Below are positions 31,492 to 62,053 of a DNA stretch of 64,000 bases, piece by piece. The DNA lies in contig JAGOZU010000002.1 in NCBI GenBank assembly GCA_018058545.1, positions 6,231 to 70,230 of the forward strand, given 5' to 3'. The DNA is from Promineifilum sp. (GTDB lineage Bacteria; Chloroflexota; Anaerolineae; Promineifilales; Promineifilaceae). A program made the position numbers and the translations under genes. The notes under the pieces are model-generated. The model was given only the letters and a program-made list of their open reading frames with translations, searched no databases and was not told the DNA's origin. The number at the start of each line of letters is the position of its first letter. Within the stretch, counting starts at the first letter, position 1.

Positions 31492-31516
31492 ATCGAATCG
31501 AGGTTCATAGGTTCTT

Positions 31517-31551
31517 CATTCGAAATTCGACATTCGTCATTCGTCATTGGG
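31517..31551. repeat. Heptamer tandem array between dnaB and dnaD
   Basis: cattcga aattcga cattcgt cattcgt cattggg. Confidence 0.85.
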
Positions 31552-33686: not shown

Positions 33687-33721
33687 CATTCGTCATTCGT
33701 CATTCGTAATTCGTAATTTCC
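33687..33721. repeat. Heptamer tandem array after the dnaC-like gene
   Basis: cattcgt cattcgt cattcgt aattcgt aatttcc. Confidence 0.9.
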
Positions 33722-59090: not shown

Positions 59091-61226
59091 TTAGGGCACG
59101 ACAACCAGCGGCGGTGATGGCGCCGAGGTTTCACTGCCGTTTGCTACCGGCAATCGCACCTCCGAGGCGCGGTCATACAGGCCGACAATGACGGCGTAAT
59201 CGCCGGGCGCGGCCGATTCCGGCACGCGCATCGGGTGAATCTGGGCGATCAGCTCGCCCGTACGCCAGGCCCATGACGGCGCGTCCAGCCGGTCGCTCTG
59301 GGCCAGGATGCCGCCCGCGCCGTCGAGCACGTGGGCGAACATCACCGCGTCGGTGGTGAAGCTGGGGGGCACGACCGGCCCGGCTCGTGTCGGGTCGAGC
59401 ACGCGCCAGACGGTCAGCAGTTCGGCCGTCTCCCCCGGGCGGACGCTATCCGACAGCCAGCGCGCGGCCGTCAGTTCAATCGCCCCGTTGAAATCGACCG
59501 GTTGGGCCAGCGCACTCCCGGCCGTTAATGTCGTCGCCGCCGGCGAGCCGTCGAGCCGGTAGAGTGTGAAGCGCGGATCGAGATCGTCCGGCCGCAGATC
59601 GACGGTTTCGATGGCTTGCAGCAGGGGGATGAACGCCGGATGCGGCGGCGTGGAGGCGGGGATGACGGCCAGCGTTCGCGCCGGCGGCAATACCAGCGCG
59701 TAGCGACCATCGACCCAGCGGGCTGTCTCGCCGACGGGCGGATGGTCGGCGGCCGTGACCAGGGCGATGGATGAGTCGTGGGCCGGGCCGGGATAGACGG
59801 TGGAGAAGAGGACAGGGTCGGCGTCGGAGTAGTTGGCCGTCACATGCCGGATCGACTCAACCAGTGTGTGCTGGTAGGCCCCGCGAACCTCGGGCGACTC
59901 GCCCCAGCGTATGAAATAATCGCGCCCGGAGACAAAAGCGACCCAAAGAACCAGGAGGAGAGAGAGGGAGACGGGGAGACGGGGAGCTGGGGAGCGGGGG
60001 AGCGGAGGAGCGCCCCTGCCCCTCTGCTCCTCTGCTCCCCAGCCCCTCATCACTCCTGCAGCGACGATTAAATACACCGCCGGCAGCGCGGCCATGTTAC
60101 GCGTGGTGTTGGCCGTCGGGCCGGTGACGAGCGACGGGACGATGCCCGCCAGAAACCACAGCAGCAGAAAGGCATGGGCCGGCTGCCGCAGGCGCACGAG
60201 GCAAACGACCAGCCCGATGACGAAGAAGACGGCCGAGACGATATCCAGCACCGGCCGCCCGGGGATATTGTAGGCCAGGAACGTATCGCCAAAGCCGGGC
60301 CAGACGAAGGCCAGCAGCGCGTCGCGGACATTGAGCAGGATGGGGACGAAGTTGCCCGCGCGGACGGCTCCCAGCGGGCCGTCGAACATGTCCAGCCGCG
60401 TCTGCATCTCCGGATGGGCGCGCAGGTAAAGGAACATCGGCGCGACCAGCAGCCCGGCCAGCAACAGCCCCGCCAGCACCGGCCGCCATGACCGACGGAA
60501 GGCCGATCGATGGAACAGCGCCAGATAGGCCATGAACGCCGGAAACATCAGCCAGCTCACCCGCGCCGCCAGATAGGTGTGGAACGTCAGGGCGACGGCC
60601 AGGCCAAAGAGGATGACGAATGACGAGCGACGAGTGACGAGCGGGGAACGGGGTGTGGAAATGCTCCCCTGCTCCTCCGCTCCCCTGCTCCCGCGCTCAT
60701 TCGTCATTCCGAGAATTTTCCAAAAGGCCCACACCGCCAACAGGGTGAAGAACGGCAACATGCCGACCCGCAGCGCCTCGCGGCTGGAAGCCAGCGGCCA
60801 GAAGGAGACAGCCATCAGCGCCGAAGCCAACAGAGCCGTGGCGCGGCCGAACCGCGGGGAGGCCCAGGCACAGGTCAGAGCGATGGCCAGCGTGCCGAAG
60901 GCGACGTTGACCAGCCGCAGGGCGAACAAGCCACGGCCGAACAGAGCCATGAACAGGGCCACGGTATAGCTGTAGAGCGGCTCGCTGCCGTAGTTGAGCG
61001 GGAAGAAGTAGAGGAGGACGCCGTTGAGGATGCCGATGGCCTCGCGGCCGTGGTTGGCCTCGTCGTGGGTCAGCCCCGGCGGGATTCCGGTCAGGTTCCA
61101 GACGCGCAGGGCGAAGGCGACGAGAAGAATGATGAGGAGCAGAGGAGCAGGGGAACGGAGGAGAGAGGAACTAACTGCTCTCCCTTTTCTCCCTTCACCG
61201 CTTTCCCTCCGCGCCCCATGCGTCAT
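59091..61226 (-). CDS. GT39/ArnT-like (PMT-type) multi-TM glycosyltransferase
   Basis: ALRVWNL...PPGLTHDEA.HG, R...A.FGTL, multiple TMs, and a C-terminal FAHVLD...QSD...W..GE domain. Confidence 0.8.
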   Translation of the reverse strand: MTHGARRESGEGRKGRAVSSSLLRSPAPLLLIILLVAFALRVWNLTGIPPGLTHDEANHGREAIGILNGVLLYFFPLNYGSEPLYSYTVALFMALFGRGLFALRLVNVAFGTLAIALTCAWASPRFGRATALLASALMAVSFWPLASSREALRVGMLPFFTLLAVWAFWKILGMTNERGSRGAEEQGSISTPRSPLVTRRSSFVILFGLAVALTFHTYLAARVSWLMFPAFMAYLALFHRSAFRRSWRPVLAGLLLAGLLVAPMFLYLRAHPEMQTRLDMFDGPLGAVRAGNFVPILLNVRDALLAFVWPGFGDTFLAYNIPGRPVLDIVSAVFFVIGLVVCLVRLRQPAHAFLLLWFLAGIVPSLVTGPTANTTRNMAALPAVYLIVAAGVMRGWGAEEQRGRGAPPLPRSPAPRLPVSLSLLLVLWVAFVSGRDYFIRWGESPEVRGAYQHTLVESIRHVTANYSDADPVLFSTVYPGPAHDSSIALVTAADHPPVGETARWVDGRYALVLPPARTLAVIPASTPPHPAFIPLLQAIETVDLRPDDLDPRFTLYRLDGSPAATTLTAGSALAQPVDFNGAIELTAARWLSDSVRPGETAELLTVWRVLDPTRAGPVVPPSFTTDAVMFAHVLDGAGGILAQSDRLDAPSWAWRTGELIAQIHPMRVPESAAPGDYAVIVGLYDRASEVRLPVANGSETSAPSPPLVVVP
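59963..60048. repeat. Inverted arrays of an 8-mer inside the GT39 CDS
   Basis: acggggag acggggag ctggggag cgggggag cggaggag | cgcccctg cccctctg ctcctctg ctccccag. Confidence 0.85.
60611..60709. repeat. Composite 7-mer/8-mer element inside the GT39 CDS (99 bp)
   Basis: atgacga x2, gcgacga, gtgacga, then gctcccct-type 8-mers x4, closed by cattcgtcattc (inverse of the left end). Confidence 0.85.
61134..61217. repeat. Degenerate inverted 8-mer arrays at the GT39 5' end
   Basis: gaggagca gaggagca ggggaacg gaggagag ... ctgctctc ccttttct cccttcac cgctttcc ctccgcgc. Confidence 0.7.
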
Positions 61227-62053
61227 TTCCGAGTGGTTGCCACAGCAAATACCTCGCGCTCGAAGAACCAGCGGAACGGCGGTACGTCGAAAGCCAGACG
61301 TCGTAACCCGGCCATCAGAGCCGACTCGTCGCGGTTCTGCGGCGGCGAATCAAGCCAGACCTTGATGCCGGTGTAGCCCGCCTGCTTCAGCCCCTGCCGC
61401 ATGCGAATCAGGTCTTGCTCGTTGACATGAACGTCCTGGTTCACCGGGGTGATGGCGCGCGGGTCCTTGGGATAGGCGTCGCCCTGTCCCATGAGCATGC
61501 GCACGCGGCGCACCCAGGGGTAGGCGTAGGCGTCGTACCAGCGATTGGGGGCGGTATGGATGATCAGGCGGCCGCCCGGCTTCAGCACGCGGCCGATCTC
61601 CAGATAGGCCTGGTGCAGCTCCCACGGGAAGAGGTGCTCCACCACGTCGAACATCAGCGCACGGTCAAAATAGTTGCTGGGGAAGGGCAGGCTCTTGGCG
61701 TCGGCCTGCAGCACGCCGGGTTGCATCGACGGCCGCTCGTCTCCGGATTCCGATCGCTGCAACTCCGCGGCGACGACATCGCGCGACATCCGGGCGGCGG
61801 CGACGGCGTAGTCCATGCCGTGGGCCTCCACGCCGAGGCGCATGCAGTGGCGCAGGATTTCGCCGCGGCCGCAGCCCACATCGAGCACGCGCATGCCCGG
61901 CCGGACGTCGGCCAGCGCGAAGGCATCGTGCAAGCGGCGCGACAGATGCGCGCCTTCCGATTCGATGAATACGTCATAACCCTCGCACGCCGTCAGGAAG
62001 TATTCTTCCGTATAGAGCGAGGACGGCAAGGACTTTCTTTCTGTTTCACTCAT
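61223..62053 (-). CDS. Class I SAM-dependent methyltransferase
   Basis: VLDVGCGRGE, ADAKSLPF, DVVEHL, LKPGG. Confidence 0.9.
   Translation of the reverse strand: MSETERKSLPSSLYTEEYFLTACEGYDVFIESEGAHLSRRLHDAFALADVRPGMRVLDVGCGRGEILRHCMRLGVEAHGMDYAVAAARMSRDVVAAELQRSESGDERPSMQPGVLQADAKSLPFPSNYFDRALMFDVVEHLFPWELHQAYLEIGRVLKPGGRLIIHTAPNRWYDAYAYPWVRRVRMLMGQGDAYPKDPRAITPVNQDVHVNEQDLIRMRQGLKQAGYTGIKVWLDSPPQNRDESALMAGLRRLAFDVPPFRWFFEREVFAVATTRK

Follow-up and report, generated by a model that had tools for sequence, protein, structure and literature searches.

Heptamer repeats of the STRR type in cyanobacteria were reportedly described by Mazel et al. in 1990, and Ogata et al. are said to have described the Rickettsia palindromic elements (RPEs) in 2000, work cited in PMC1779305 and PMC10969869. 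RPEs are palindromic repeats that lie in frame in protein-coding genes, where they are translated, are tolerated in loops, and are seen as selfish DNA. Small Nostoc repeats of fixed length (21–27 nt), nested in tandem heptamer arrays and in hairpin contexts, were reportedly documented by Elhai et al. in 2008, a study that PMC3116915 mentions. Here, we compare with these and other systems an element at positions 60611–60709 of a 64,000-nt stretch of DNA from Promineifilum sp. (Chloroflexota; assembly GCA_018058545.1, contig JAGOZU010000002.1, positions 6,231–70,230, forward strand), referred to below as the window. The element, ggatgacgaatgacgagcgacgagtgacgagcggggaacggggtgtggaaatgctcccctgctcctccgctcccctgctcccgcgctcattcgtcattc, is a composite of two dispersed short tandem repeat families, TGACGAA-type heptamers and GGGGAGCR-type octamers, which pervade a Promineifilum subclade, and it lies within a gene for a membrane glycosyltransferase. 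We consider it probable that the element is a translated and tolerated hairpin of older heptamers, the center of which was later filled by octamers, that is, a passenger at the DNA level. No evidence of a function was found, and none is proposed beyond the element being tolerated.

Arrays of TAACTGA occur in Beggiatoaceae, cyanobacteria, and Bacteroidetes, and the stop-codon asymmetry of their two orientations has been spelled out (PMC4679880). GGGAATC and GGGGAYT repeats occur in Xanthomonas and Nostoc, where “tandemly inverted” copies were noted and formation of G-quadruplexes (G4) was shown (PMC4692102). The Promineifilum heptamers share with STRR and other heptamer simple sequence repeats the head-to-tail arrangement of 7-nt units, the large number of dispersed arrays, the enrichment outside genes with some arrays intragenic, the restriction to one lineage, and the property that one orientation is closed by stop codons while the other is translatable. 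They differ in their units, TGACGAA, TTACGAA, TGACGAG, and TTAGGAA, none of which is CCCCAGT, TTGGTCA, TAACTGA, or GGGAATC; in their phylum; in the coexistence and combination of an 8-nt family with the 7-nt family; in that inverted-array hairpins of fixed polarity are common; and in the many arrays that lie in frame in conserved, even essential, genes. Judged by sequence, they are repeats of the same kind as the STRR-like ones and not members of the same family. Like RPEs, the window element is palindromic repeated DNA, in frame in an open reading frame (ORF) and in a loop between two helices of the host protein. RPEs, however, form families of 100–150 bp with a full-length consensus, whereas the element is built of 7- and 8-nt units and shares no full-length consensus with many copies. 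Compared with what is reported for the nested Nostoc repeats, the nested part is here itself a tandem octamer array. REP and REPIN elements, which are mobilized by RAYT transposases (PMC3116915), are likewise short, dispersed, and hairpin forming, but REPs are single palindromes of fixed sequence and not tandem micro-units. Literature searches for such repeats in Chloroflexi/Chloroflexota or Promineifilum returned nothing.

The element is 99 nt long and thus comprises exactly 33 codons, as a preliminary description of the sequence had stated, in frame within a minus-strand ORF (59091–61226). Its ends, ggatgacgaatg and cattcgtcattc, are inverted with one mismatch in 12 positions, also in agreement with that description, and hold a perfect core of 11 nt, in which the left arm of the outer stem, ATGACGAATGA (60613–60623, plus strand), pairs with TCATTCGTCAT (60697–60707; 100% complementary). 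Read on the plus strand, a purine-rich heptamer array, TGACGAA TGACGAG CGACGAG TGACGAG (60614–60641; 4.0 copies of period 7 according to Tandem Repeats Finder), grades into two G-rich 7-mers, CGGGGAA (60642–60648) and CGGGGTG (60649–60655), which by sequence reading form the hairpin center (60642–60661) together with the 6-nt loop TGGAAA (60656–60661). Then follow, as previously noted, four C-rich octamers of the GCTCCCCT type, TGCTCCCC, TGCTCCTC, CGCTCCCC, and TGCTCCCG (60662–60693, plus strand; Tandem Repeats Finder assigns 3.9–4.5 copies of period 8 to 60662–60698), and a short tail of pyrimidine-rich heptamers (TTCGTCA), CGCTCATTCGTCATTC (60694–60709, plus strand). The octamer part is bounded by heptamer ends on both sides, and the two arms of the hairpin differ in unit number. 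On either strand, the element is a staggered nested palindrome that runs from purine-rich heptamers through G-rich units, loop, and C-rich units to pyrimidine-rich heptamers. GACGAGC and GGGGAGC differ at two positions and no more. For each strand, the predicted fold is a single long, imperfect hairpin, with an RNA minimum free energy of −52.5 kcal/mol for the plus strand and −56.5 kcal/mol for the minus strand; this lies well beyond shuffled sequences (z = −4.4 and −5.1, respectively), none of which (0 of 200) was equally stable.

The host gene (59091–61226, minus strand) encodes a 711-residue protein with three repeat patches, which we assign to the GT-C fold membrane glycosyltransferases (PMT_2/ArnT-like) because the best PDB matches of its AlphaFold (AF2) model (mean pLDDT 70) are ArnT (5f15/5ezm), followed by oligosaccharyltransferases (OST) and PglB. 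The Pfam PMT_2 match covers residues 83–172 and ends where the insert begins. The element encodes about residues 173–206, GMTNERGSRGAEEQGSISTPRSPLVTRRSSFVIL, between the helices at 151–181 and 196–217, and pLDDT falls below 50 at residues 177–193. On the coding strand, 60614–60641 reads CTCGTCA and so on, giving the peptide LVTRRSSFVI; 60662–60693 reads as G-rich octamers, giving RGSRGAEEQGS; and the tail, GAATGACGAATGAGCG, translates as GMTNE, with both of its TGAs out of frame. The insert appears to be read through as a low-complexity, probably disordered peptide, in a loop that the model places, with low confidence, between two transmembrane helices. The heptamers had been introduced as an intergenic family, which holds for about half of the arrays; the copy at 60611–60709 is coding.

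Orthologues of the host gene were found across the genus, which allowed the same loop to be compared between the genome that holds the window (G000, a 3.6-Mb assembly) and related genomes (designated by other G numbers), most of them fragmented metagenome-assembled genomes (MAGs), in which assemblies break at these repeats. Orthologue protein identity to the window protein is 96% in G003, 94% in G004, 77% in G011, 75% in G002, and 72% in G010 and G018. The hybrid occupies this loop in G000, G003, and G004 only. G011 carries a compact pure heptamer hairpin, AATGACGAATGACGAATTACGAATGACGAATG – loop – TCATTCGTCACTCGTCACTCGTCATTCGTCATTC, with TTA where TGA would be in frame; G010 and G018 carry pure heptamer hairpins with longer loops; and G002 carries a pure octamer hairpin. 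Other heptamer arrays, of CAGACCA, CCACGCG, or TCGGTCA type, occupy the loop in further relatives (loci L088, L018, L057, L061, and L084). Homologues at 50–57% identity have 50–56 residues between the anchors REALRxG and HxYLAAR, compared with 74 in the window protein, and a short, repeat-free loop therefore exists, so that the comparison with an empty site that the preliminary description had called for could be made. The window, G011, and G010 have the heptamer start ATGACGAATGA in common, and the right junction, ...TTCGTCAT(T/C) CT(C/G) TT(T/C) G, is common to these three and G018. The distance from a conserved Trp codon to the start of the array is one codon in G011 and G010 (L012 and L015) and four codons in the window. 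When the whole gene is aligned between G000, G003, and G004, the sole indel (+9 nt) falls at the center of the element, as do clustered substitutions, and 60642–60661 is the most variable part between these close relatives.

The two families are distributed differently. TGACGAA arrays are abundant (34–147 matches) in seven of the 41 genomes searched, that is, in the subclade formed by G000, G002–G004, G010, G011, and G018. GGGGAGCR arrays give about one match each in G010 and G011 and are abundant in G001, G009, and G014, which are without TGACGAA arrays. The preliminary description had offered two accounts of the link between the alphabets, one mechanism or nested insertion. Nested insertion fits best: the heptamer ends and the right junction are shared with relatives whose hairpins are purely heptameric, GGGGAGCR is nearly absent from G010 and G011, and octamers always stand on the loop side. 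The two families do share hairpin architecture, polarity, and permissive sites, and they are separable in their distribution across genomes; a single mechanism for both is neither shown nor excluded.

We infer the following order of events. The ancestor of the subclade would have gained a heptamer hairpin in the loop, consisting of a purine-rich arm, a loop, and a pyrimidine-rich arm. In the lineage of G000, G003, and G004, the center of this hairpin would later have been rebuilt with octamer units, with either a mini-hairpin of octamers inserting into the loop or slippage or template switching adding new units at the tip of the hairpin; the two arms may afterward have gained and lost units to different extents. 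Old heptamers would then lie outside and younger octamers inside. Selection would act only as a filter, keeping the total length a multiple of three and admitting no heptamer with an in-frame TGA. Since TGA closes all frames of (TGACGAA)n, we had also entertained the idea that octamers took the place of the forward heptamers for that reason; the idea is unnecessary, as relatives use TTACGAA or GTACGAA as every third unit.

Hybrids of 7-mers and 8-mers, for which the preliminary description had proposed a search, exist elsewhere. Heptamer and octamer arrays lie at most 45 nt apart at four loci in G000 (the window element on contig C78 and loci on C179, C160, and C29; a weaker case is found on C8), whereas 0.26 such cases would be expected (P = 1.5e-4, about 15 times chance), and further hybrid loci occur in G003, G004, G010, G015, and G018. 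In pattern searches of eight genomes of the genus, about seven independent loci, one of them seen by eye in G015, had octamers 3′ of a purine-rich heptamer array, toward the loop, and none had them 5′, on the outer side; independent hybrid loci are few. The second in-frame hybrid of G000, again running from heptamers to octamers, corresponds to residues 96–119 of an RlmI-like methyltransferase (L111, C179:61982–63250), in the linker between its PUA and methyltransferase domains. This linker is 8–11 residues long in outgroups, where it is empty of repeats, and 21–62 residues long in the genus (orthologues L113–L130), where it holds different repeat alphabets in different species. This second hybrid-bearing site thus behaves in the same way as the window loop.

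That the two arrays are unrelated and landed or expanded side by side in one permissive loop, through a coincidence of tolerance with neither nesting nor a shared process, appears unlikely. It would suit a loop that has been occupied repeatedly, as suggested by three G000 paralogues with different arrays and by orthologues with many unit types, it would suit the similar behavior of the RlmI-like linker, and the genome distributions of the two families are separable. Yet the genome-wide excess of adjacent arrays, the nonrandom orientation, in which octamers always follow the purine-rich heptamer array toward the loop and never lie on its outer side, and the enclosure of the window octamers by heptamer ends on both sides are not what coincidence predicts.

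The inverted ends, matching over 11–12 nt, the in-frame position in a loop, as reported for RPEs, and the recurrence of the window-element junction ACGAGCGGGGAAC in a different gene and genome (the RlmI-like gene of G015) could suggest a discrete composite mobile element, similar to a miniature inverted-repeat transposable element (MITE) or an RPE, that was inserted as one unit with terminal inverted repeats. This explanation is largely refuted and, in our estimate, highly improbable. A blastn search of G000 with the 99 nt matched arrays at element positions 3–31 and 52–88 only; neither the whole element nor its center has a second copy in the genome, and we therefore reject a unit mobile element. 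The heptamer array matches other G000 heptamer arrays at 92–100%, and the octamer array has a 32-nt, 100% match in an MFE-2-like gene (C66:1204–1235). No target-site duplication or flanking direct repeat is visible at the ends, which are mere units of the heptamer family, and relatives hold different interiors between the same boundaries. The element thus has the inverted ends of a MITE but neither the target-site duplication nor the further copies.

Two genes for RAYT-like (Y1_Tnp) transposases are present in G000, L131 (C110:537–776) and L132 (C156:224–463). Their flanks hold longer repeat families, a 47-nt tandem repeat in one case and REP-like palindromes with GTAGCTCAACCTGTCAG-type motifs in the other, and no heptamers or octamers flank either gene. 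As a mobilizer of the heptamer or octamer arrays, RAYT is rejected on present evidence, since other repeats flank both genes. As a separate observation, ends of an IS3-family insertion sequence directly adjoin arrays in the first ∼170 nt of contigs C29 and C38 and in the first ∼200 nt of contigs C108, C136, and C160 of G000. These ends comprise the 3′ end of orfB with the right inverted repeat or the start of orfA with the left inverted repeat, and the arrays beside them are TTAGGAA/CTAATTC heptamers and, on C160, a G-rich octamer array. All five ends seen adjoin arrays, and the contigs break there. In Escherichia coli, IS1397 targets REPs; by analogy, the repeat hairpins seem to serve as targets of the IS3-family element.

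The census of G000 yielded about 92–98 heptamer arrays, with the units TGACGAA, TTACGAA, TGACGAG, and TTAGGAA, and about 63 octamer arrays of the GGGGAGCR type. For the octamers, a reversed-genome control is uninformative and was not used, as GGGGAGCR units are nearly symmetric on reversal. By crude gene calls, 49 of 104 heptamer arrays are intergenic, compared with about 10% of random 30-mers, and octamer arrays lie mostly within ORFs. At least 35 genes hold arrays at a distance of more than 50 codons from both ends. According to Pfam, these are ordinary genes, which include pheT and genes for a copper P-type ATPase, a Type ISP restriction enzyme, an MFE-2-like enzyme, and five PMT_2 proteins; two ABC exporters carry arrays in the linker between the transmembrane domain and the nucleotide-binding domain, as the RlmI-like methyltransferase does in its PUA–methyltransferase linker. 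In the essential pheT gene (L098, C28:22041–24614), the heptamer-derived insert MTNDELRMTNEE occupies residues 161–172 and separates the tRNA-binding domain from the B3_4 domain.

The units used in genes suggest that the heptamer arrays they contain are read through. None of 34 in-frame units in coding-sense heptamer arrays starts with TGA; such units start with TTA, GTA, or TCA instead. TGA starts 40 of 89 out-of-frame units and 138 of 272 intergenic ones.

Given unit lengths that are not multiples of three, inside a gene for envelope glycans, the element could be thought a contingency locus, in which slippage of a single 7- or 8-nt unit toggles a surface glycosyltransferase. Heptanucleotide tracts are known switches in other bacteria, as in neuO (PMC13001214), simple sequence repeats act in phase variation in Haemophilus (PMC2651432), and the GT-C paralogues are rich in arrays. 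Phase variation is nevertheless very unlikely here because the units are imperfect, which lowers slippage, because unit number is constant in three genomes, and because the same kind of array is found in pheT and other essential genes, which could not be switched off without killing the cell. G000, G003, and G004 have the same unit counts, in frame, in all three patches of the host gene, with the +9 nt as the sole change in length and no frame-shifting change in unit number between these close strains. The G011 orthologue appears split, which might be taken for a slippage frameshift; this was rejected, as the split is a scaffolding gap, with a run of N and duplicated flanks. The run of N (L012, G011:C107, about 1400–1500) lies inside the second repeat patch and is an assembly artifact caused by the repeats.

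A functional module is another conceivable explanation, either an mRNA hairpin or G4 that pauses translation between transmembrane helices or a flexible linker under selection. The structure predicted for both strands is strong, the element is conserved in three genomes, and its coding strand holds G-tracts (GGG, GGGG, and GGGG plus GG tracts) of the kind that forms G4 in the heptamer repeats of Xanthomonas and Nostoc (PMC4692102). Against these points, the three genomes are just 3–6% diverged overall, the content of the site is freely replaced between species and absent in many homologues, and the peptide region is modeled with low confidence. A scan of 59800–61300 against Rfam gave no known RNA family, just subthreshold matches to generic hairpins (miRNA precursors). 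We regard a functional module as scarcely probable.

Hairpin polarity is uniform in G000: the purine-rich arm is 5′ in all nine heptamer and all nine octamer homotypic hairpins (18 of 18). This brings us to a bolder reading, in which a process specific to the lineage would write the arrays by adding units of 7 or 8 nt to the tips of hairpins, with growth outward from the center. Such tip growth would explain the absolute polarity, with the purine-rich arm first, the octamers on the loop side, and the hypervariable centers; candidates for the process are repair synthesis after cleavage of a hairpin or cruciform, with template switching, or an unrecognized enzyme. We hold it to be rather unlikely. 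If it were true, each hairpin would be a layered record, with old units outside and currently active units inside, and the hybrid would mark the point at which the lineage of G000, G003, and G004 changed its active unit from heptamer to octamer.

Examples of heptamer hairpins in G000 are found at C16:13144–13213, C60:4688–4782, and C136:2715–2794. Five of the nine heptamer hairpins are asymmetric: one arm consists of TTACGAA and the other of the complement of TGACGAA, which gives one T:C mismatch per unit, and stops are absent from all three frames of one strand and close every frame of the other. Two of these five lie in regions called intergenic.

Several points weigh against the reading of the element as an old heptamer hairpin with a younger octamer center. 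The outer ends shared with relatives could stem from repeated independent colonization of one permissive loop rather than from descent, because heptamer arms look alike everywhere, and three paralogues at 28–44% identity hold different arrays in the homologous loop. The octamer hairpin of G002, which has the same right boundary, suits wholesale replacement or conversion as well as it suits central growth. Because G011 carries another octamer type, a GAGAAAGG hairpin, at a second site in the host gene, its lack of octamers concerns the GGGGAGCR type only. No event was caught in the act, and no presence/absence polymorphism was seen between near-identical genomes. In addition, the gene calls behind the census are ORF-based, and the case for translation of the arrays comes from frame maintenance.

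One structural loop can thus be compared across graded genomes in which it is empty, holds a pure heptamer hairpin, holds the hybrid (the window lineage), or holds a pure octamer hairpin (G002). Together with the strict polarity rule, this series gives the question of how heptamer families such as STRR spread, which dates from 1990, a model that can be tested, in which units grow or are inserted at the center of the hairpin. Repeats with nontriplet units can persist, in translated form, in loops and linkers encoded by dozens of genes, both ordinary and essential ones; this is relevant to how loops and linkers diversify, to annotation, where low-complexity inserts and split Pfam matches arise, and to the assembly of MAGs, where contigs and scaffolds break at arrays.

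The remaining two patches of the host gene consist of octamers. The second (59960–60056) is a pure octamer hairpin with 39-nt arms that are 77% complementary and encodes GWGAEEQRGRGAPPLPRSPAPRLPVS; pLDDT is below 50 at residues 398–417, and the peptide found here in the G010 orthologue is of heptamer type. The third (61131–61169), found by tandem-repeat and inverted-repeat searches, is an octamer array near the N terminus that encodes SSSLLRSPAPLLL. Another repeat family is present on the minus strand of contig C29 of G000 (about 141–290), where a 50-nt unit containing GAAGAGGGGGG occurs in three tandem copies. Elsewhere in the window, two TTCGTCA-type heptamer arrays of about five units each (31512–31548 and 33687–33718), both in the same orientation, flank a gene pair and are ordinary members of the TGACGAA-type family.

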